Assembly (NCBI RefSeq): GCF_965641715.1
Contig: NZ_OZ282453.1
From: Escherichia coli
Lineage (GTDB): Bacteria > Pseudomonadota > Gammaproteobacteria > Enterobacterales > Enterobacteriaceae
Reading direction: 5' to 3' (one strand)
Length of the DNA: 64,000 nucleotides
Positions 469 through 64,000 of this stretch are shown here, piece by piece. The notes under the pieces were generated by a model. It was not told the origin of the DNA. It did no database searches and saw only the letters and a program-made list of their open reading frames with translations. The translations under genes were made by a program, and so were the position numbers. Each line of letters begins with the position of its first letter. Positions within the stretch are counted from its first letter, which is position 1.

Positions 469-3400
469 TTACCACTGAATACCGGCACCGAGTGCGGCGG
501 AGTATTCACCCTGGCTATTGGTACTACCTTGTAATTTGTAGACCCAACGACCATTGGCGCTCACCATCGACACACCTAAAGCAACTGCCGATTCACCGTT
601 GTAAGTACCGCCACCAATAGAGGCCATGCTGGCACCTGGAGTGTAAGCCTGCGGCAGACCGGTCATTGCCATTGCAGAAGCGATACCACCGCTCAACTTG
701 CTTTCAGTTTTAGACAGTTTGTTATCCATCTCAACCATCCGCTGATCGGTGTATTGCTTCGTTTCCTGCACGCTTTGCTTCAACTGCGCGTAGTTCACCG
801 CGTCGTTGTTGTTGACGCCAGCGGAGACGTTGCTGATACGAGTCGTACCGCCGTTGCCCCCACCGAGGGTGATATTGCTATAGTCAACAGAACCATCAGC
901 GTTGGTGTCGTAACGTACACCGCCCGCCTCAGAAGACTTCAACTGTGCCACGTTAACAGCATCGGTGTCGTTTTTACCTGCGGCTACGTTGGTGATACGA
1001 CGTTGATTAGTAGATGAGCCTACAGAGATCGTATTTTCTTCGGTTGCCACAGACCCTGTACCCAGTGCGACGCTGTTATCCGCGGCAGCAATGGAACCAG
1101 AACCAATCGCGACGCTATCTTTACCCTGCGCGCTGGCATCTACACCATCGGTATTGGTCTTGAAGTACTTGGTGCTACCGGTGGTGACGATATCGCCAAT
1201 ACCGTTTTCGATATTAGTAACGCGAGTATCCAGATTAGTGACCTGATTGTTCAGGTTAGTAATGCTCTGGGTATTCTGGGAAACCTGCGCATCCGTTACT
1301 TTCAACTGACCTACGTTGACCGCATCGGTATCCGCTGAACCAGCTGCGACGTTGGTGATCTGACGTTGACCGTCTTCACTACCAACAGAAAACTCACCTA
1401 CAGAGTTCTGCGGTGCGTCCATGTTGTAGGCGGTGTAGCCAGTCTGTGCACCACGGGTGGTCTGAGAACCGTTACCCATTGCAATACTGTTTGCATGGTT
1501 TGCGCGTGCGTTACTGCCGATAGCAATGCCGTTGATCGCATCAGCCAGAACCAGAGTGTTCAAACCGATACCAATACCTGCATTACCATTAACGACAGTT
1601 TTCGCACCCATTGCCAGCGAGTCTTCACCAACGGCCAGTGAGTCTTCTGCCGTTGAGTTGGCGTGAAAGTACTTGGTTGGCGTGGTTGCGACCGCACCAA
1701 TCGCATTCTGCAATTGACGAACCGTAACGGCGTCATGGGCTTCGGAACCATCAGCTACGTTGATGATTTGGCGGTATTTACCGTCATTACCAATTGACAA
1801 TGCACCTAGCAGTTCGCCGTCAGTGGTGTCATAACCAATCACCACGCCATTTTCCGTTACGCTAGTGTCACGAGAACCTTTGGCAATCACACGGCTGGAA
1901 ACGGAGCTGCTACCCAGCGCAATACCGGTATCAACGGTGCTATTGCTGTTCTGACCAATGGCTACGCTGCTGGCACCAGACGCGACAGCGTTATAACCTA
2001 CAGCTGTAGCGCCGACACCAGAGGCGCTTGCATCGTTAAAGGCTAAACCGTTGTCGTTAGTACGAACGTAGTTGATACCAGCGCCATTTTCTTCGATATA
2101 GGTTGCGTCGGTGTTACCAGCAAGCTGATTGATGATTTGGCTGTTCTGCTCAATCATCATATTCGTCGCATTCAACTGAGAACCGTTCACTGCATCGGTA
2201 CTGTCCTCACTAATACTGCCATTAGCGACATTAGTGATGATGCTGGCTTTACCGTCATGGCTGGCATTGTAGGCTCCTGCACCGCCATTGGCAGTCTCAT
2301 CCCACAGCAGGGCGTTATCATCAAGCGCATCCAGGGCGTCACCGACGTTGTTGTACTCGGCGTTCGCAATGGTGTAAGTCGGTGCGGTGATGGTGCCGTC
2401 AGCGTTAACTTCTGCATCACCACCCAGCGCATCAGCGATGTACTTGTTGGTGGTATACAGTTGTGAGCCGTTAATAGCATCGCTGCTGGTTGCGGAGACT
2501 GTACCGGCTGCAACATTAGTGATCTTGCTGGCGGAGTTATCTTTCCCGTGACCAGCACTGAATGCACCTTTACCATCATTGGCTGTTGCATCCCACAGCA
2601 GAGCATCATCGAGAGTGGTGTCGATGGCGTTCAGGGCATCACCGACGTTATCGTAATCAGCATTAGCAATGGTGTACGTCGGCGCAGTGATGGTGCCGTC
2701 TGCATTGATTTCGGCACCACCACCCAACGCATCTACGACGTACTTATTGGTGGTATAGAGTTGCGAGCCGTTCACAGCATCAGAGCTTGTGCTTGAAACA
2801 TCCCCGTTTGCGACATCAGTGATCACGCTTGCGTCACCATTAGTACCGTGTTTGGCACTAAATTTATCTACGGAAGCGTCCCAAAGCAGGGCATCGCCGA
2901 GAGACGTGCTAAATGAGGAGTTAATCGCAGCTAGTGCATCGCCGACGTTATAATAATTTGTTTCACCGATTTTGTAGGTTGGACCGGTAAACACACCGTC
3001 AGTATTCACAGAAGCATTGCCGCCGAAGTAGGTGGCGATATTGCTGCTTAAGTCATAAAGCTGGCTGCCGTTAATGGCATCGGAACTGGTTGCAGTGACT
3101 GCGCCGTCCAGGATATTGGTGATTTTGCTGGCGGCGTTGTTGCCATGAGCAGCCGTGAAGACACCATTGTCCTTATCCCATTTCAGCGCATCTTCACCAA
3201 GGTTAGTCACCGTCTCAGTCAGGTTAGAGATGTTGGTGGTGTTAGTGGCAATATTGGTGGTATTCGTCGCCACAGCATCGTTGGTGGTTTTCAGCTGGGA
3301 GCCGTTAACGGCATCAGTGCTGCCAGCCGTCAGGTCGGCATCTTTAACGTTGGTGATTTTGCTGGTGGCGTTGTTGCCGTGAGCTGCCGTGAATACACCA

Positions 3401-5358
3401 TTGTCCTTATCCCATTTCAGCGCATCTTCACCAAGGTTAGTCACCGTCTCAGTCAGGTTAGAGATGTTGGTGGTGTTAGTGGCAATATTGGAAGTGTTAT
3501 TGGCGATATTGGTGGTATTCGTCGCCACAGCATCGTTGGTGGTTTTCAGCTGAGAGCCGTTAACGGCATCGGTGCTGTCAGCCGTCAGGTCGGCATCTTT
3601 AACGTTGGTGATTTTGCTGGTGGCGTCGGTGCCATGAGCTGCCGTGAATACACCATTGTCCTTATCCCATTTCAGCGCATCTTCACCAAGGTTAGTCACC
3701 GTCTCAGTCAGGTTAGAGATGTTGGATGTGTTAGTGGCGATATTGGTGGTGTTGGCTGCCACGGCATCGTTGGTGGTTTTCAGCTGAGAGCCATTAACCG
3801 CGTCAGTGCTGCCAGCCGTCAGGTCGCCAGCGGTGACGTTGGTGATTTTGCTGGTGGCATCAGTACCGTGTGCGGCGCTGAATGCTGTACCCTTCCAGAG
3901 GAGGGCATCATCCTTAAGGTCGCCAACGGAATCCGTCAGGTTGGTGATATTGGTGGTGTTAGTGGCGATATTGGTGGTGTTGGTTGCCACATTATCATTG
4001 GTGGTTTTCAGCTGAGAGCCGTTAACGGCGTCTTTACTGGTAGCCGAAATATCGCCATCTTTTACATTGATGATTTTGTTTTCTGCTACGGTACTGGTAA
4101 TCGTTCCATCAGCATTTTTAACAATATAATTGGCGCTGAAAGCCCCTTTAGCTGAGTCCCAGTGCAGAGTTTCATTGTCAAGGTACTGGAGTGCTTCACC
4201 AACGTTATTGAAATTCTTTTTCTTCAGTTGAAAAGACATATCCATTATTGTTCCGTTAGTAGCAACATTTGCTCCGCCTCCCAGCCTGTCTGCTACTGAC
4301 CTACTAATGGCGTAAAGTTGTGAACCGTTAATGGCTTCTTTACTGTCCGTTGAGATTGTACCTGCCGCCATATTGACGATGCGACGCTGCGCTGACCCAG
4401 AGCCTACCGATACAACGTTGTCTTCACCTGCTGTAGAGTTTGCACCAATCGCGACGGAGTTATTCCCTCCTGCAGAGGATGAACTTCCTAATGCAAGACT
4501 GTTTGATCCAACCGCAGAACTTCCTGTACCGATCGCAATAGCATTTGCGGTTGATGCGCAGCTGTTCTGGCCTAATGCGATGGTGTTTGTGTTTGATGCT
4601 TGCGCATTTTGCCCCAAGGCAAGAGCACTTGCGCCAGTAGCCGCTGCTGTATATCCCAGGGCAACAGAACCTTCACCTGTTGAATCACTGTTTGCACCTA
4701 ATGCAAGACTGTTTTTGCCTCGAGCTTTCGCTTTAGTACCTACAGCCGTCGCATTTTCAGCGGCTTCGGTCTCAGCACCTATCGCAATGGAGTTTGCTGC
4801 ACTGGCAAGTGATTGCCTGCCTAATGCCAGAGAGTCTGCGCCGTTCGCCTTTGCAGATTTTCCCAGCACTAAAGAGTTGCTGGCAGTAGTAGCAGCTTGT
4901 GCTCCGACCCCCAGGACAACTGAATATTCTGCCAGTCCGTCGGCCCCACTACCGATTGCGATCGCTCGGTTTCCGGAAGCTTCTGCCACTTGTCCGATTG
5001 ATACCGATCTCTCTCCGGTTGCGTAGCTTTGGTAACCTAATGCAGTCGAACCAATACCTGTAGCCCAGGCGTTCGCGCCCACCGCAACTGCACCAGTCCC
5101 ATTGCCCACTGAGGACGCTCGTGCACCCTGGCCAATAGCTACCCAGACATCAGTGATTTCTGTTGGATCAGAGAATGTGCCACCATCAAGTGACGCACTG
5201 GCGTTTGCCCCAAACGACGAAAACATTCCACCCGCAACCAGGGCAGAAATTAACAGCTTACTGCGACCAGATTTCTTACCACGGCTCTTCGCTGTTTCGC
5301 TGGCAACGCTATAACTGCCCGTCGCCGGATTCCAGATGACTTTAAATATTTTGTTCAT
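469..5358 (-). CDS. upaG: Trimeric autotransporter adhesin, SadA/UpaG/EhaG family, 1629 aa
   Basis: N-terminal extended signal peptide [10 protein letters not shown]...; Ala/Gly/Ser-rich head repeats (NSLALG, NSVAIG); many neck motifs S(T)DAVNGSQL; Asn/Thr-rich coiled-coil stalk; C-terminal YadA-like anchor ending ...[10 protein letters not shown]. Symbol assigned by family and position only, allele not determined. Confidence 0.85.
3140..4110. repeat. Four near-identical tandem repeat units (about 234-255 bp, 78-85 aa each) inside the adhesin stalk, with 7-aa NTTNIAT-type sub-repeats
   Basis: The string cattgtccttatcccatttcagcgcatcttcaccaaggttagtcaccgtctcagtcaggttagagatgttgg recurs at about 3165, 3399 and 3654; the antisense ORF 3145..4155 shows the same peptide three times, confirming DNA-level identity. 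Confidence 0.75.
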
Positions 5359-9462: not shown

Positions 9463-11376
9463 TTACTTACGACCTGCCAGCAGTTCCAGCACTTCATCCA
9501 CACTGGTGGTGTGTGCCAGACGCTCGATGACAGACTCATCATCCAGTGCGTTGGTCAGGCTGGTGATAACCTGAATGTGCTCGTTGTTACGGGCTGCAAT
9601 ACCAATCACCAGACGGGCAATGTCATCTTCTTCTTCGCCGAAGCGCACGCCTTCCGGGTACTGGCAGAACACGACGCCAGTTTTCAGTACGCGATCTTTC
9701 GCTTCAACCGTACCGTGCGGCACTGCGATAGACTCACCCAGATAAGTCGGGGTCAGTTTTTCACGATCCAACATCGCCTGAACGTACTCCGGCTCAACGT
9801 AACCACCTTTCACCAGCTGCTCGCCAGCAAAACGAATCGCTTCTTCTTTGGTGGCAGCTTTGCGACCGAGGAAGATGTTCTCCGCGCCCAGTTTGAACAG
9901 GTTAGCACTGGAATCGTCAAAGCTGTCTTTCAGACTGTCTTTCACTTTCACTTCGTTTTCAGTATGGCGCTGGGCAGCAACCAGACGTTCGGTCAGGCTG
10001 GTGTACAGGCCGCTGTCGAGGAAGTTGGTCAGCGAAATATGCTGTGCCTGCGGAACCTGGCGCATAGCGCGTTCGGTCAGGTCACGGTGAGTGATGACGA
10101 GGTCCACATCTGGCGGCAGGTTGTTGATCGCGCTGTTAGTGACCGAAATCTGCGACAGACCTGCATCCTGAATTTTCTTACGCAGCACGCCTGCGCCCAT
10201 CGCACTTGAACCCATACCGGCGTCACAGGCAACGATGATTTTACGTACGTGGCTCAGGTCGTTAGTCACATCGCCCGCAGACAGCGGAGATGCACCTTTA
10301 GACTCAGCTTTCATGTCCTGCATACGACGAGTTGCTGCTTCAATATCATCTTCTTCTTTCACTTTGCTGGTTTTCAGCAAAATAGCAGAGACAACAAAGG
10401 AGACAGCCATCGCCGCACACACACCCGCGATGTTAGCGAAATAAGCACCTTTTGGTGTCATCGCCAGTACAGCAAGGATAGAACCCGGAGATGCCGGAGA
10501 AACCAGACCACCGCCCAGGATAGTCAGCGTGAACACGCCAGTCATACCGCCGAGGATAACGGCCAGGATCAGACGCGGATTCATCAACACATACGGGAAG
10601 TAAATTTCGTGGATACCACCCAGGAAGTGGATAATTGCCGCACCGCCCGCAGACTGTTTAGCGCTACCACGACCAAAGAACATGTACGCCAGCAGCACGC
10701 CCATACCCGGACCTGGGTTAGCTTCAATCAGGAAGAATATGGATTTACCCAGTTCATGGGACTGCTGAATACCCAGCGGCGAGAAGATACCGTGGTTAAT
10801 GGCGTTGTTGAGGAACAGGATTTTCGCCGGTTCAACAAAGATAGACGCCAGCGGCAGCATGTCATGGACAACCATGAAGTTAACGCCCGCAGCCAGCATT
10901 TTGGACAGGGCTTCAACAATCGGGCCAATGCCGAGAAATGCCAGAATGGCGAGGATCATCCCGATGATGCCTGCGGAGAAGTTATTCACCAGCATCTCAA
11001 AACCGGATTTGATCTTACCGTCTACCCAGCGGTCGAAGTGCTTAATGCACCAGCCGCCCAGCGGACCTGCAATCATAGAACCGAGGAACATCGGCATGTC
11101 TGCGCCGACGATAACGCCCATGGTGGTGATGGCACCGACTACGCCGCCACGTTCGCCGCCTACCAGCTTACCACCGGTATAACCGATCAGCAGCGGCAGG
11201 AGATAAGTGATCATCGGCCCGACCAGCTTCGCCAGCGTCTCGTTCGGTAACCACCCTGTTGGAATAAATAACGCGGTGATGATACCCCACGCGATAAACG
11301 CGCCGATATTTGGCATCACCATGTTGCTGAGGAAACGACCAAAGCTTTGCACTTTGATCTTAATATCGGATGACAT
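9463..11376 (-). CDS. mtlA: Mannitol-specific PTS enzyme IICBA, 637 aa
   Basis: Full-length match in size and sequence to MtlA ([25 protein letters not shown]...). Confidence 0.95.
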
Positions 11377-11912
11377 AAAAACACCCCTTCTTATGTTTGC
11401 TGTCGCGCAGGCTGGAAGCCCGAGGTTTTTTGTTAATGTGGCGGCAGAGGTAGCCGGACCTTGTAGATACTGCGAAATCTGGCACTGAATCGGTTAACTG
11501 TCCAGTCGACGGCCTTTTGTGTGATATCAATCACATAAATATAGGGGGTAGAGAGGTAATTGACGTGACGTTCATCACAAAACGCTTGTGTAAAAAAGCA
11601 ACAAGGCGGCGATTTTCGCTAAAAATGGCATTTAAATGTGAGTAGTGTCACATTTTTGTTTTGATGGTTTGTTGAATCTTTGTGATCTGAATCACAAGAT
11701 ATTTTCTTACGGCGTTCACCTGATGTGATCTACAGCATGTTATGCCTTCGTCATACAATCGTTATGTAACTAAGCAACTCATCACCTCTAAAAATTATTC
11801 TTTGGTGTTATGGCGAGAATCGCGAACCCGGATTATTGTCAAAATATCAGCCTGACTCCCTTCTGGCTGCCAGCCAAAAAACAACACTGATAAACGTGAA
11901 TCCGAGGCAAAT
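11377..11912. promoter_or_regulatory. mtl operon regulatory region, divergent from yibI, with multiple CRP sites
   Basis: Perfect CRP consensus TGTGA-N6-TCACA at 11520-11535 (tgtgatatcaatcaca) and 11681-11696 (tgtgatctgaatcaca), plus a half-site-rich element at 11565-11579; the mtl promoter is known to carry several CRP sites. Confidence 0.7.
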
Positions 11913-12275
11913 ATGTTTCTAAACTATTTCGCGTTGGGAGTGCTGATCTTCGTCTTTCTGGTGATTTTTTATGGAATCATCGCGATACATGACATCCCTT
12001 ATTTGATTGCCAAAAAGCGCAACCATCCCCATGCCGACGCTATTCATACGGCGGGCTGGGTGAGCCTGTTTACTCTGCATGTTATCTGGCCGTTTCTGTG
12101 GATCTGGGCGACGCTCTATCAACCGGAGCGCGGCTGGGGCATGCAGTCACATGTTGCGTCGCAGGAGAAAGTGACTGACCCGGAAATCGCCGCACTTTCT
12201 GACCGAATTTCCCGGCTGGAGCACCAACTCGCCGCCGAGAAAAAGACTGACTATTCCACGTTCCCGGAGATCTAA
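11913..12275 (+). CDS. yibI: DUF3302-type small membrane protein YibI, 120 aa
   Basis: N-terminal transmembrane helix and conserved [20 protein letters not shown] motif; paralogue of yiaW at 21011. Confidence 0.85.
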
Positions 12276-12277
12276 TT

Positions 12278-13414
12278 ATGGATCTATTGATTGTTTTAAC
12301 TTACGTGGCGCTGGCGTGGGCGGTCTTTAAAATCTTTCGTATTCCGGTGAATCAATGGACGCTGGCGACGGCGGCGCTGGGAGGCGTGTTTCTGGTGAGT
12401 GGTTTGATTTTGTTGATGAACTACAACCACCCTTACACTTTTACCGCGCAAAAGGCTGTGATAGCGATCCCCATCACGCCACAGGTGACGGGAATTGTTA
12501 CTGAAGTCACTGACAAGAATAATCAGCTTATTCAAAAGGGCGAGGTGCTTTTTAAGCTCGACCCGGTTCGTTACCAGGCGCGAGTTGACAGACTTCAGGC
12601 TGACCTGATGACGGCGACGCATAATATAAAGACGCTGCGCGCGCAGCTCACTGAAGCGCAGGCCAACACCACCCAGGTTTCAGCGGAGCGCGACCGTCTG
12701 TTTAAAAATTATCAACGTTATCTGAAAGGCAGCCAGGCGGCGGTGAATCCGTTCTCGGAACGTGACATCGACGATGCGCGGCAAAATTTCCTCGCGCAGG
12801 ATGCGCTGGTGAAAGGCTCGGTGGCGGAGCAGGCGCAGATCCAGAGCCAGCTCGACAGTATGGTCAACGGCGAGCAATCGCAGATTGTGAGCTTAAGAGC
12901 GCAACTTACTGAAGCAAAATATAATCTTGAGCAGACTGTCATTCGCGCACCAAGCAATGGCTACGTCACTCAGGTACTGATCCGCCCAGGCACATACGCA
13001 GCTGCCTTGCCGTTGCGTCCGGTGATGGTTTTCATCCCCGAGCAAAAACGGCAAATTGTCGCCCAATTTCGGCAAAACTCGCTGTTACGTCTGAAACCTG
13101 GTGATGATGCGGAAGTGGTGTTTAACGCGCTACCTGGGCAGGTGTTCCACGGCAAACTGACCAGTATTTTACCTGTCGTGCCAGGCGGTTCTTATCAGGC
13201 GCAGGGGGTATTGCAATCATTAACGGTCGTGCCCGGCACGGACGGTGTGCTGGGAACCATTGAACTGGACCCTAACGATGATATCGATGCCTTACCCGAC
13301 GGCATTTACGCCCAGGTGGCAGTTTACTCCGACCATTTCAGCCATGTTTCGGTGATGCGGAAAGTGCTGCTAAGAATGACCAGCTGGATGCATTATCTTT
13401 ATTTGGATCATTGA
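12278..13414 (+). CDS. yibH: HlyD-family membrane-fusion-like protein YibH, 378 aa
   Basis: N-terminal transmembrane helix, long coiled-coil, C-terminal beta domain; 2 bp downstream of yibI; paralogue of yiaV. Confidence 0.85.
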
Positions 13415-13484
13415 GACTTATATCACCTGTGTTTTGCGTGAGCCTGAGCCATACTGATATTTTTCCTCGCACAAAGGACTCGGC

Positions 13485-14093
13485 ATGAAACTCGTCGGTA
13501 GCTACACCAGCCCGTTTGTACGCAAACTTTCTATTCTGTTGTTAGAAAAGGGCATAACTTTCGAATTTATTAATGAACTGCCCTATAACGCGGACAACGG
13601 CGTGGCGCAATTTAACCCGTTAGGAAAAGTGCCGGTGCTGGTGACCGAAGAGGGCGAATGCTGGTTTGATTCGCCGATCATCGCTGAATATATTGAATTA
13701 ATGAATGTCGCTCCGGCGATGTTGCCGCGCGATCCGCTGGAGTCGTTGCGGGTGCGCAAAATTGAGGCACTGGCGGATGGCATTATGGATGCCGGGCTGG
13801 TATCGGTGCGTGAACAGGCGCGTCCAGCGGCGCAGCAGTCTGAAGATGAATTGTTACGCCAGCGGGAGAAAATCAACCGTAGTCTGGATGTGCTGGAAGG
13901 ATATCTGGTCGATGGCACACTTAAAACCGATACGGTCAATCTGGCGACGATCGCCATTGCCTGTGCCGTCGGATATCTCAATTTCCGCCGCGTTGCGCCA
14001 GGCTGGTGTGTCGACCGCCCACACTTAGTCAAACTGGTCGAAAACCTGTTTAGCCGCGAAAGTTTTGCTCGCACCGAACCGCCAAAGGCTTGA
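13485..14093 (+). CDS. yibF: Glutathione S-transferase-like protein YibF, 202 aa
   Basis: Thioredoxin-like GST N-terminal signature ([28 protein letters not shown]); position upstream of selA. Confidence 0.88.
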
Positions 14094-14190
14094 TGCGCGA
14101 TATGTCCTCCTGACCCATCTCACGTTACAATCCGTGGTTATGTTAAACGCCCTTCTCCGTGTGAGAGGGCCTTGATCAGCCAGGTTTCCT

Positions 14191-20582: not shown

Positions 20583-21010
20583 AACAAAGCGCACGTTGTT
20601 ACAATTTACGTTTTAAACCTACGTGCGCAATAACCCAGACTACGCCAACAGAAGTGCGTTTCTGGGGCGTGTTTTGCCAGGAGTTTAATCTCGCGTTTCG
20701 ATGGTGAGCGGGCGAACCAGGCCATAAATCACCATTGGCGTTCCGAGGCCAATCAGCAATAAACGGTAGATAATTGAAGGTTTAATACGCTTAATCTGCA
20801 TTGTGGATGTTTTACTGAAGTTATTCATTAGTTTGGCTGATAGTTCCATTATTTCAATATGATAAGCCTCGACCTGTTAAAAAGCCAGGCAGCACACTTC
20901 AGGAAGTATATAAAAAACAATATGTCGTTATATAAATAAGGAAATTGCACTGCATCATGGCATTTAATAATATGCGTTAATTGTTCATTTTTATATTCTC
21001 TGAGGGAAAT

Positions 21011-21334
21011 ATGTTCCTGGATTATTTTGCACTGGGAGTGCTTATTTTTGTATTTCTGGTGATATTCTATGGGATTATTATTTTACATGATATTCCCTAC
21101 CTGATTGCTAAAAAACGTAATCATCCTCATGCCGACGCCATTCATGTTGCTGGTTGGGTGAGTCTTTTTACGCTGCATGTTATCTGGCCATTTTTGTGGA
21201 TTTGGGCCACGCTTTACCGCCCGGAGCGGGGATGGGGAATGCAAAACCATGATTCATCCGTTATGCAACTGCAACAGCGCATTGCCGGGCTGGAGAAACA
21301 GCTCGCCGACATCAAATCCTCTTCTGCCGAGTAA
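21011..21334 (+). CDS. yiaW: DUF3302-type small membrane protein YiaW, 107 aa
   Basis: ORF track starts at a TTG (20981); ATG at 21011 gives [23 protein letters not shown]..., nearly identical at the N-terminus to YibI. Confidence 0.85.
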
Positions 21335-21339
21335 TACTT

Positions 21340-22476
21340 ATGGATTTACTGATTATTTTGACCTATGTGGCTTTTGCATGGGCAATGTTTAAGATCTTCA
21401 AAATTCCCGTAAATAAATGGACCATTCCCACAGCGGCCCTGGGTGGAATATTTATTGTCAGCGGTCTAATTCTGTTAATGAACTATAACCATCCGTATAC
21501 CTTTAAAGCGCAAAAAGCGGTTATTTCTATTCCTGTTGTCCCACAGGTGACTGGTGTGGTGATTGAAGTGACGGATAAGAAAAATACGCTGATTAAAAAA
21601 GGTGAAGTGCTATTTCGACTGGACCCGACGCGTTATCAGGCGCGGGTGGATCGGCTGATGGCGGATATCGTTACCGCAGAACATAAACAGCGGGCGTTGG
21701 GCGCAGAGTTAGATGAGATGGTGGCGAATACTCAGCAGGCAAAGGCCACGCGGGATAAATTCGCTAAAGAGTACCAGCGTTACGCACGCGGCAGCCAGGC
21801 GAAAGTAAACCCGTTTTCAGAACGCGATATTGATGTGGCACGGCAAAATTATCTGGCGCAGGAAGCCTCCGTAAAGTCATCGGCGGCGGAACAAAAACAG
21901 ATCCAGAGCCAGCTGGATAGCCTGGTGTTGGGTGAACATTCTCAAATCGCCAGCCTGAAAGCGCAGCTCGCGGAAGCAAAATATAACCTTGAGCAGACGA
22001 TAGTGCGTGCGCCGAGCGATGGTTATGTGACCCAAGTGCTGATTCGTCCGGGTACCTATGCCGCGTCGCTGCCGCTACGTCCGGTGATGGTGTTTATACC
22101 CGATCAGAAACGACAAATCGTGGCGCAGTTCCGTCAGAACTCCTTGCTGCGACTGGCTCCTGGCGACGATGCGGAAGTGGTGTTTAATGCTCTGCCAGGT
22201 AAGGTATTCAGCGGTAAGCTGGCAGCCATTAGTCCAGCCGTTCCCGGCGGAGCTTATCAGTCGACCGGCACCTTACAGACGTTAAACACAGCGCCGGGTT
22301 CAGATGGCGTTATCGCGACCATTGAACTGGATGAGCATACTGATTTGAGCGCATTACCAGACGGTATTTACGCCCAGGTGGCGGTCTACTCTGATCATTT
22401 CAGCCATGTCTCGGTGATGCGCAAAGTACTGTTACGCATGACCAGCTGGGTGCATTACCTTTATCTCGATCATTAA
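21340..22476 (+). CDS. yiaV: HlyD-family membrane-fusion-like protein YiaV, 378 aa
   Basis: Same architecture and length as YibH; C-terminus [20 protein letters not shown] is nearly identical to that of YibH. Confidence 0.88.
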
Positions 22477-52707: not shown

Positions 52708-53703
52708 TTAACTCACTAATCTGTTTCTGTCGATTCGTTGTACCAGCATAGAAAGTAACAAACTCGCTGCCAACGTCGCGCAAAAAATCCAAATAATATC
52801 CAGTATTGGCCAATTTTTAAGCTCAATTCCCCGGGTGCGCAGCGCATGGATAATCAAGGCGTGGAATCCGTATATACCCAACGAATGGCGGGAGATTAAG
52901 CCAAGTCCGCGAATGGTACGCGTATCCAGCGTGTTTTTAACCAGAGTCAATAGCGCGATTGCGCAGATAAAAACCATCGGCCCACAGTAAAGATACCAGG
53001 TATCGGCAAAATTTCCGCGCCACTGCAATTCATATAATGTCCCGCGAGAGATAATAAAAACTCCCGTCGCAAACAGTGCGGTGCTCACCCACGACAGTGC
53101 TTTATGCTGTGTGTCCATCATCCCTATAGCGCGGCCCAACATGCCATACAGAATGTAATAAAAAGTATCGCCATTGATATATAAGTTAATTGGCAGCCAT
53201 TCAAAACCGTCGATTTTCTGCGGCACGGTGTTTGGGTTAGCGATGATACCAATCACCACCATTAGCACCAGCAACATTTTTCCGCCGACGTTCTTCACCT
53301 GAATCAGCGGTGAAACCAGATAAATCACCGCAATCGCGAAGAAAAACCATAAGTGGTAAAACACTGGCTTTTGCAGCAGGTTTTTCAGCGCTAACTCCAC
53401 ATTAATGGAGGTAAACAGTGCAATGTAGAGCAGCGCGATTGCGCTATAAAAAAACAGACATAAGCCGATACGCAAGAAATGGCGCGGCTGGGCGCTGCGT
53501 TCGCCAAAAAAGAGATAGCCGGAAATCATGAAAAATAGCGGCACGCTGACACGAGAGGCAGAGTTCAGAACATTGGCGATATCCCAGGTGACGGGGCTAA
53601 CACTATGAGCATTGGTCACATACCAGGTAGTGGTGTGAATCATCACCACCATTAAACACGCTATCCCTCGCAGGTTATCAATCCAGTAAATTTTGGGCTG
53701 CAT
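52708..53703 (-). CDS. wecH: Acyltransferase-3 family O-acetyltransferase, 331 aa
   Basis: About 10 transmembrane helices, acyltransferase-3 family; position between yiaA and ysaB. Confidence 0.88.
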
Positions 53704-61791: not shown

Positions 61792-64000
61792 TTGGCCAAC
61801 TCATCCTCACGATATTCCGTTCTGACTGCCGCCCATTGGGGGCCCATGCTGGTTGAAACCGACGGCGAAACCGTGTTTAGCTCGCGTGGCGCGTTAGCCA
61901 CAGGAATGGAAAACTCCTTGCAGAGCGCGGTTCGTGACCAGGTTCACAGCAATACGCGGGTACGATTTCCAATGGTGCGCAAAGGCTTTCTCGCGTCACC
62001 GGAAAACCCGCAAGGCATTCGTGGGCAGGATGAATTTGTTCGCGTGAGTTGGGATGAGGCGCTGGATCTTATTCACCAACAACATAAACGCATTCGTGAG
62101 GCTTATGGTCCGGCATCGATTTTTGCTGGTTCCTACGGCTGGCGTTCAAACGGCGTGCTGCATAAGGCCTCGACATTATTACAACGCTATATGGCGCTGG
62201 CAGGCGGTTATACCGGGCATCTGGGGGATTATTCGACCGGCGCGGCACAGGCGATCATGCCGTATGTCGTGGGTGGTAGTGAAGTTTATCAACAGCAGAC
62301 CAGTTGGCCGCTGGTGCTGGAACATAGCGATGTCGTGGTGCTGTGGAGTGCTAACCCACTCAATACGCTGAAAATTGCGTGGAATGCATCCGATGAGCAG
62401 GGGCTTTCTTACTTTTCTGCACTGCGTGACAGCGGGAAAAAGCTGATCTGCATTGATCCAATGCGATCGGAAACCGTCGATTTCTTTGGCGATAAAATGG
62501 AGTGGGTGGCACCGCACATGGGCACCGATGTTGCGCTGATGCTGGGGATCGCCCATACGCTGGTGGAAAATGGTTGGCACGACGAAGCGTTTCTGGCGCG
62601 TTGCACCACAGGTTATGCCGTCTTCGCCTCTTATTTGCTGGGCGAGAGTGACGGAATAGCGAAAACCGCCGAATGGGCAGCAGAGATTAGTGGTGTTAAC
62701 GCAGAGAAAATCCGCGAGCTGGCGGCTATTTTCCACCAAAATACCACCATGCTGATGGCTGGCTGGGGAATGCAGCGCCAACAGTTTGGTGAGCAAAAAC
62801 ACTGGATGATCGTCACGCTGGCGGCAATGTTGGGGCAAATCGGCACACCCGGCGGCGGTTTTGGTCTTTCTTATCATTTTGCCAATGGTGGTAACCCCAC
62901 GCGGCGTTCTGCGGTGCTCTCTTCCATGCAGGGCAGCTTGCCGGGTGGCTGCGATGCGGTGGATCAAATACCTGTTGCCCGCATTGTTGAAGCACTGGAA
63001 AACCCCGGTGGCGCATATCAACACAACGGTATGGACCGACATTTCCCGGATATTCGTTTTATCTGGTGGGCGGGCGGTGCCAACTTTACTCATCATCAGG
63101 ATACCAATCGCCTGATCCGTGCCTGGCAAAAACCGGAGCTGGTGGTGATCTCTGAATGCTTCTGGAAGGCGGCGGCAAAACACGCGGATATCGTTCTGCC
63201 TGCGACTACCTCTTTTGAGCGTAATGATCTCACCATGACCGGTGATTACAGTAATCAGCATCTGGTGCCGATGAAGCAAGTGGTGCCGCCACGCTATGAA
63301 GCGCGTAATGATTTTGATGTTTTTGCCGAGTTAAGTGAACGCTGGGAGAAGGGCGGTTATGCACGTTTTACGGAAGGAAAAAGTGAGCTGCAATGGCTGG
63401 AAACGTTTTATAACGTTGCCCGACAGCGCGGGGCAAGCCAGCAGGTTGAATTGCCGCCATTTGCTGAGTTCTGGCAAGCCAATCAGTTAATTGAGATGCC
63501 GGAAAACCCGGACAGCGAGCGGTTTATTCGCTTCGCTGATTTTTGCCGCGATCCGCAGGCGCATCCATTAAAAACCGCCAGCGGTAAGATTGAAATCTTC
63601 TCGCAGCGTATTGCCGATTACGCTTATCCGGATTGCCCGGGGCATCCAATGTGGCTGGTGCCGGACGAATGGCAGGGCAATGCCGAACCGGAACAGTTAC
63701 AGGTACTTTCTGCTCATCCGGCGCATCGTCTGCACAGCCAGCTGAATTACAGTTCTCTGCGCGAATTGTACGCGGTGGCAAACCGTGAGCCTGTCACCAT
63801 TCATCCTGACGATGCCCAGGCGCGCGGCATACAAGATGGCGATACTGTTCGGCTGTGGAACTCACGCGGGCAAATTCTTGCCGGAGCGGTCATTAGCGAG
63901 GGAATTAAACCTGGCGTGATTTGCATTCACGAAGGGGCATGGCCGGATCTGGATTTAACCGCTGACGGTATTTGTAAAAACGGCGCAGTGAACGTGCTGA
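61792..64000 (+). CDS. bisC: Biotin sulfoxide reductase (molybdopterin oxidoreductase), 5' part only; continues beyond the window
   Basis: Frame open from 61792 to the window end, so absent from the ORF track; translation from TTG 61792 reads (M)[28 protein letters not shown]..., matching recalled BisC. Confidence 0.85.

Follow-up and report, generated by a model that had tools for sequence, protein, structure and literature searches.

Five CRP sites between mtlA and yibI of Escherichia coli correspond to the operator of the mannitol operon mtlADR

Results

The CRP sites between mtlA and yibI reproduce the published mtl operator

The intergenic region that separates mtlA from the divergent gene yibI carries a cluster of five cAMP-CRP sites upstream of a weak sigma-70 promoter; this cluster is almost certainly the operator of mtlADR, the mannitol operon of E. 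coli. This identification is based on the fact that the site centres, their spacings, and the flanking genes are equal to those of the published map. The cluster is located in a 64-kb stretch of the E. coli chromosome, which as a whole is referred to here as the window; its segment 11300-12000 was found in 5404 of 5426 complete E. coli genomes. In the RefSeq annotation available for an identical strain, mtlR-mtlD-mtlA are located on the minus strand, and the plus strand encodes yibI, yibH, yibF, selA, and selB (Table 1). The spacer between mtlA and yibI comprises 536 bp (11377-11912), and not 535 bp as given in a preliminary description of this DNA.

Table 1. Coordinates of the genes, CRP sites, and promoter elements of the mtlA-yibI region.
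Feature	Position	Strand	Sequence	Remarks
mtlA	9463-11376	-		Mannitol PTS enzyme IICBA, controlled by the CRP cluster; NCBIfam NF011663, 1324 bits; RefSeq
mtl core promoter	11476-11504	-		Predicted -35 TGGACA (11504-11499), 17-nt spacer, predicted -10 CAGATT (11481-11476)
Cra-like box	11485-11498		CTGAATCGGTTAAC	In the mtl promoter spacer; invariant in 17 sequences; exact box putative
CRP5	11520-11535		TGTGATATCAATCACA	10/10 consensus bases; score 18.3; centre 11527.5 = -58.5 from the mtl start, class I-like
CRP4	11564-11579		CGTGACGTTCATCACA	9/10; score 16.3; centre 11571.5 = -102.5; 44 bp from CRP5
CRP3	11637-11652		TGTGAGTAGTGTCACA	10/10; score 14.8; centre 11644.5 = -175.5; RegulonDB site at -175.5
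CRP2	11681-11696		TGTGATCTGAATCACA	10/10; score 19.9, best of the window; centre 11688.5 = -219.5; 44 bp from CRP3
CRP1	11724-11739		TGTGATCTACAGCATG	7/10; score 10.2, weak; centre 11731.5 = -262.5; 43 bp from CRP2
TCTACA-N19-TACAAT	11729-11759	+		Directed towards yibI, overlaps CRP1; 'constitutive promoter' by RNA polymerase SELEX (PMC3946193)
Conserved yibI-proximal block	11804-11849	+	GGTGtTATGGCGAgAA...gATTATTGTCAAAATATC	Kept in 15/17 sequences with yibI beside mtlA
yibI	11913-12275	+		DUF3302; Pfam PF11742 on YibI homologues
yibH	12278-13414	+		HlyD-type adaptor; forms with yibI the divergent operon 11913-13414

The exact palindrome TGTGA-N6-TCACA occurs three times in the 64 kb, and all three matches are in the mtlA-yibI spacer (CRP5, CRP3, and CRP2). 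The expected number was 0.07, and at least three matches appeared in none of 100 dinucleotide-preserving shuffles. The two perfect sites at 11520-11535 and 11681-11696 that had been pointed out in the preliminary description are indeed at those coordinates, and the third one (11637-11652) had been overlooked. Two weaker elements reported there also exist, although they had been slightly misplaced: the one given as 11565-11579 begins one base earlier (CRP4), and the one given as about 11715 corresponds to CRP1, at 11724-11739. Additionally, a scan with a CRP position weight matrix, as that description had proposed, was carried out using a symmetrised matrix obtained from 103 independent ETEC ChIP-seq sites (PMC4287617), from which the four mtl/yibI sites were excluded. 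The four best 16-mers of the whole window were all found in the spacer, inside 170 bp, with scores from 14.8 to 19.9, while the median score of the 103 ChIP-seq sites was 13.0; the fifth site, CRP1, was placed at rank 16. From CRP5 to CRP1 the centre-to-centre spacings are 44/73/44/43 bp, and thus three pairs of adjacent sites (44, 44, and 43 bp) are separated by 43-46 bp. The gene mtlR is annotated downstream of mtlD.

These five sites reproduce exactly the positions and spacings that have been published for mtl, in agreement with the multi-site architecture anticipated from the first inspection of the sequence. In the study of Lee et al. (NAR 2026; PMC13421365), CRP1 to CRP5 are centred at -262.5, -219.5, -175.5, -102.5, and -58.5, with spacings of 43/44/73/44 bp; the mtl entries of RegulonDB (Shimada 2011 supplement) contain the same five sites, and their flanking sequence agrees with the window. 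With 38 clones, the spacer ranked second in abundance in the CRP genomic SELEX (Shimada 2011), and two peaks were detected in it by ChIP-seq of ETEC (Haycocks 2015; PMC4287617), with CRP5 and CRP4 listed under mtlA and CRP2 and CRP1 under yibI. This region is thus the class III CRP-dependent promoter of mtlADR, with the five-site layout and the downstream mtlD and mtlR confirmed here. No evidence contradicting this identity was found in our analysis.

Other matches to the CRP consensus were observed in the window. The fifth-best score (14.6) corresponded to CGTGACCAGGTTCACA (61933-61948), in the yiaD-bisC intergenic region. The sequence GGTGACGGGGCTAACA (53587-53602, score 9.9) occupies the position of the intragenic wecH CRP site, which appears as TGTGACGGGGCTAACA in the tables of the ETEC ChIP-seq (PMC4287617) and of SELEX; one base differs in the window strain. 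Three moderate CRP-like 16-mers with scores of 9.7-12.3 are present in the coding region of yibH (12457-12511), an overlapping pair formed by TGTGATAGCGATCCCC (12457-12472) and AGCGATCCCCATCACG (12463-12478), and TGTTACTGAAGTCACT (12496-12511); these may be chance matches in coding sequence.

Functional roles of the sites and recruitment of MtlR

Transcription of mtl requires CRP. The contribution of each site has been determined by chromosomal replacement: expression of mtlD and growth on mannitol were abolished when CRP2, CRP4, or CRP5 was replaced (M2, M4, and M5), the mutation of CRP3 (M3) caused a slight drop in mtl expression and growth, and the mutation of CRP1 (M1) had no effect, which makes CRP1 dispensable (PMC13421365). 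Gel shifts revealed that CRP1 is left unoccupied if CRP2 and CRP3 are present (PMC13421365). As for the activation from remote sites, looping or anti-silencing has been offered by the authors (PMC13421365).

The repressor of the system, MtlR, does not have a DNA-binding domain and supershifts solely DNA bearing two CRP dimers 43-46 bp apart; accordingly, the malK operator gains MtlR binding once its 34-bp CRP spacing is widened to 44 bp (PMC13421365). The ternary complex MtlR-CRP-DNA was demonstrated by gel shift and pull-down, and it is relieved by dephosphorylated EII-Mtl, which during induction sequesters MtlR at the membrane; when glucose is present, dephosphorylated HPr competes with this sequestration, so that MtlR returns to the operator and repression is restored (PMC13421365). 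Since a DNA-binding domain is missing from MtlR, a scan has no MtlR operator to find, and the weight-matrix search for such an operator suggested in the preliminary description was dropped; this protein is recruited by CRP dimers that are bound in pairs with a spacing of 43-46 bp.

Taking these data together with the arrangement of the sites, the operator almost certainly works as follows. At high cAMP, CRP dimers occupy CRP2-CRP5. From its class I-like position, CRP5 probably touches RNA polymerase, while the essential sites CRP2 and CRP4 and the contributory site CRP3 probably act by shaping the DNA. For repression, the two pairs separated by 44 bp, CRP4/5 and CRP2/3, provide the docking platform of the MtlR dimer, with CRP1/2 (43 bp) as a fallback.

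Elements of the mtl core promoter

From the published site centres, the transcription start of mtl was back-calculated to approximately 11469 on the minus strand; it falls on a T, and an error of 1-2 nt is possible. The resulting leader to the ATG of mtlA at 11376 would be 93 nt long. Both hexamers proposed for this promoter (Table 1) show no variation among 17 aligned sequences. A simple consensus promoter scan of positions 11350-11950 was uninformative, as it detected no promoter for yibI and not that of mtl either; the failure to detect the latter is expected because it is activator-dependent. The box located between the two hexamers resembles the Cra consensus, TGAAWCSNTHHW. Regulation of mtlADR by Cra has been reported (PMC5888115, PMC13421365).

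In the 73-bp gap between CRP4 and CRP3, we observed the run GTGTAAAAAAGCAACA (11588-11604), whose A-tract and flanking bases hardly vary among the 17 sequences, in contrast to the variable neighbouring DNA. This run may represent a bend or a site of the Fis/IHF type; regulation of mtl by Fis has been reported.

The geometry of the CRP sites is conserved with mtlA

To examine conservation, a scan with the N-terminus of MtlA using one genome per species yielded 80 loci, in which CRP sites were counted at a score of at least 12. A geometry of 43-45/72-74/43-45 bp was present in 62 of these 80 loci, from Enterobacterales and Aeromonas, with the conserved sites keeping a constant position relative to the ATG of mtlA (about -150, -194, -267, and -311). 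It was seen in each of the 16 loci where yibIH is next to mtlA on the upstream side (Escherichia, Citrobacter, Klebsiella oxytoca, Pseudocitrobacter, Trabulsiella, Leclercia, Lelliottia, some Enterobacter, and Pseudescherichia), and likewise in 46 of the 64 that have no yibIH inside 2.5 kb, with examples in Cedecea, Pluralibacter, Hafnia, Serratia, Yersinia, Rahnella, Pantoea, Erwinia, and Aeromonas, among others. The exceptions were mostly from Vibrio, Providencia, Photorhabdus, Gilliamella, and Actinobacillus, in which one site was below the threshold or the layout was different. The 44/73/44 architecture is therefore kept with mtlA in a much larger number of genera than the 2026 paper, with its four species, considered.

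Within the sites, the alignment of 17 Enterobacteriaceae sequences revealed that the pentamers are nearly invariant and that the N6 cores are free to vary. The comparison of UTI89 with the window follows this pattern, given that the four differences inside CRP sites are all in N6 cores (4/4). These data bear on the idea that the palindromes are fortuitous in AT-rich intergenic DNA and have no function. Short palindromes do arise at random in general; nevertheless, three exact matches were obtained in none of the 100 shuffles, the pentamers and the spacing, unlike the variable N6 cores, have been kept in about 60 genera, and binding and mutational data are already in print. A chance or compositional origin has practically no probability and is already refuted by the shuffles, the conservation, and the published data.

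For the weakest site, CRP1, 21 of the 80 loci have a half-site GATCACA at 41-43 bp upstream of CRP2, and 16 of these 21 have no yibI. CRP1 is dispensable for mtl, yet this half-site has been kept in several genera; the published model accounts for CRP1 solely as a fallback site.

Candidate promoters of yibIH

A block close to yibI is conserved in most of the sequences in which this gene is beside mtlA (Table 1). This block is likely the core promoter of yibIH, with a TGCGA-type -35 (TGGCGA, 11811-11816) separated by 17 nt from the candidate -10 TATTGT (11834-11839), and a predicted start at approximately 11846. In the -10 candidate, the T, the A, and the last T are conserved.

Other readings of this block were compared by eye with the consensus sequences, and none of them fits, namely NsrR, FNR, and sigma-54. 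For NsrR, the 11-1-11 repeat is missing and yibI does not appear in the NsrR ChIP list of CFT073, a strain in which yibIH had been chosen as a candidate by its nitrate/NO-like expression pattern; for sigma-54, the GG-to-GC spacing is 10 and not 12.

A second candidate is the SELEX promoter TCTACA-N19-TACAAT, which E. albertii and Citrobacter do not share. If transcription began near 11766, the positions of CRP1 and CRP2 would be -34.5 and -77.5, respectively, neither of which is a standard activating position. Position 11756 is a C in the window and an A in UTI89, which converts TACAAT into TAAAAT, a better -10; UTI89 is the strain in which the induction of yibI in urine was measured. A weak -10-like hexamer, TTATGT (11762-11767), was also read by eye.

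Between CRP1 and the yibI-proximal block there is a small conserved island, ATGTAACTAAGCAACT (11764-11780). It is kept in Pseudescherichia, where the block has been deleted, and it is missing upstream of the Kluyvera yibI.

In the window strain, yibH is followed directly by yibF (13415-14190), and the rhsA-region insertion is absent; the K-12 genomic-cluster listing, in contrast, has rhsA, yibJ, yibG, and yibV between yibF and yibH, so that the two strains differ by the rhsA-region genes. Approximately 9 kb downstream of yibIH, a paralogous pair encoding a DUF3302 protein and an HlyD-type adaptor (20981-22476, plus strand) shows 74% and 77% identity to YibI and YibH, respectively, and is probably yiaW-yiaV.

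Is yibIH under the control of the same CRP sites?

The sharing of the spacer with yibI had led, in the preliminary description, to the suggestion that yibIH may also be catabolite-controlled. If control were bidirectional, CRP bound at the distal sites CRP1-CRP3 would activate or repress the yibIH promoter as well, in addition to its role in the mtl operator, and yibIH would be catabolite-controlled and possibly also responsive to MtlR and mannitol. As an idea this is not new, given that it is contained in the SELEX of 2011 (Shimada) and the ChIP-seq of 2015 (Haycocks). The mtlA-yibI spacer was also ranked first, under either gene name, in a phylogenetic-footprinting scan, and yibI is unmentioned in the 2026 mtl operator paper (PMC13421365). 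We consider shared control improbable, for the reasons that follow.

Regarding the position of the sites, CRP1-CRP3 are only 181-269 bp from the yibI ATG, a distance compatible with an effect on this gene. With the conserved block as the promoter, however, CRP1 would be at -114.5, CRP2 at about -157, and CRP3 at about -201, which speaks against it. The distances regarded as class I or class II were about -41.5, -61.5, -72.5, -82.5, and -92.5, and the site nearest to this predicted start would be CRP1. The SELEX promoter faces yibI and overlaps CRP1, which is in favour of a shared region (PMC3946193), as is the TTATGT hexamer, which would set CRP1 near -41.5; nonetheless, TCTACA-19-TACAAT has been lost even in E. 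albertii.

Also in favour of shared control, both genes are downstream of the SELEX fragment in the study of Shimada (2011), where it is remarked that divergent promoters are often both regulated. One of the ChIP-seq peaks was assigned to yibI; this assignment, however, reflects proximity only, according to the footnote of the table (PMC4287617).

Expression data are available from a UPEC promoter-trap screen, in which yibI was induced 5.6-fold in urine versus LB and two urine-induced inserts were recovered; the deletion of yibI lowered UPEC fitness in urine (competitive index 0.33). We mapped one of these inserts to 11583-12064, which includes CRP1-3 and would be in line with an effect of CRP, but the other maps to 11768-12003, which contains the conserved yibI-proximal block and no CRP site; the reported ends of both are possibly those of partial reads.

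Conservation provides the remaining arguments against shared control. The geometry of the sites is fixed relative to mtlA alone, while the distance between the start codons of yibI and mtlA ranges from 433 to 663 bp among genera, and the cluster has been kept in the 46 genomes that have no adjacent yibIH. Additionally, the two modules have become cleanly separated in nature in the case of Kluyvera. In this genus, yibI-yibH-yibF-selA-selB is intact, and mtlADR is gone from the upstream side, where a DUF2810 gene and a 70-aa ORF are found instead. The yibI-proximal block is still upstream of yibI, and the 625 bp that precede this gene (2876-3500 of two loci) contain no CRP-like site, the best score being 6.5. 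The mtlA of Kluyvera, located elsewhere in the genome, has kept four CRP sites with spacings of 44/72/44. Hence, in Kluyvera the CRP sites do not stay with yibIH in evolution. In the YibI contexts of Scandinavium, Huaxiibacter, and Klebsiella aerogenes, mtlA is still adjacent, and no further natural separation was found among them. The paralogous pair at 20981-22476 does not have a strong CRP site upstream either, although its upstream DNA is an unrelated AT-rich region and therefore weakly informative.

Considering conservation and position, CRP control of yibIH is possible but disfavoured. A stricter version, in which the distal half of the operator (CRP1-CRP3) also serves the yibIH promoter in E. 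coli and its close relatives and yibIH is a second CRP target, seems to us more doubtful still. If it were true, yibIH would be the first target of MtlR outside mtlADR, CRP2/3 being an MtlR docking pair, and the new CRP target would be a DUF3302 membrane protein and an HlyD-type adaptor that contribute to the fitness of UPEC in urine.

Discussion

The palindromes present in the mtlA-yibI spacer are real, highly significant, and already known, and prior work explains them fully as the mtlADR operator. This operator is a textbook example of a complex CRP-dependent promoter and, since 2026, the founding case of a repressor that reads the geometry of two DNA-bound CRP dimers and not the DNA. Coming across it once more while scanning a genome brings no novelty.

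The comparison with the E. coli mtlADR operator described in RegulonDB and by Lee et al. (PMC13421365) indicates that it is the same locus, given that the site sequences, centres, spacings, and flanking genes agree. With respect to the mtl operators of K-12 and UTI89, the window strain shows a few base differences, located in the N6 cores and the flanks.

A region with a comparable layout is malEp-malKp, where multiple CRP sites are also found between divergent operons and both promoters use a common nucleoprotein complex; it was the model behind the initial proposal about yibIH. In the case of mtlA-yibI, in contrast, dependence has been shown for mtlA alone, and the 34-bp CRP spacing of mal does not recruit MtlR (PMC13421365). 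The complexes of CytR and CRP, for instance at deoP2, resemble that of MtlR in that a repressor is held by tandem DNA-bound CRP dimers (PMC13421365); however, CytR has its own DNA-binding domain, whereas MtlR is devoid of such a domain and recognises only the geometry of 43-46 bp. Finally, the far-upstream CRP site of the pap operon (-215), which is needed for activation, is the precedent put forward by the authors for CRP2 at -219.5 (PMC13421365). The pap operon depends on a single remote CRP site together with Lrp and H-NS, whereas in the mtl operator four sites cooperate.
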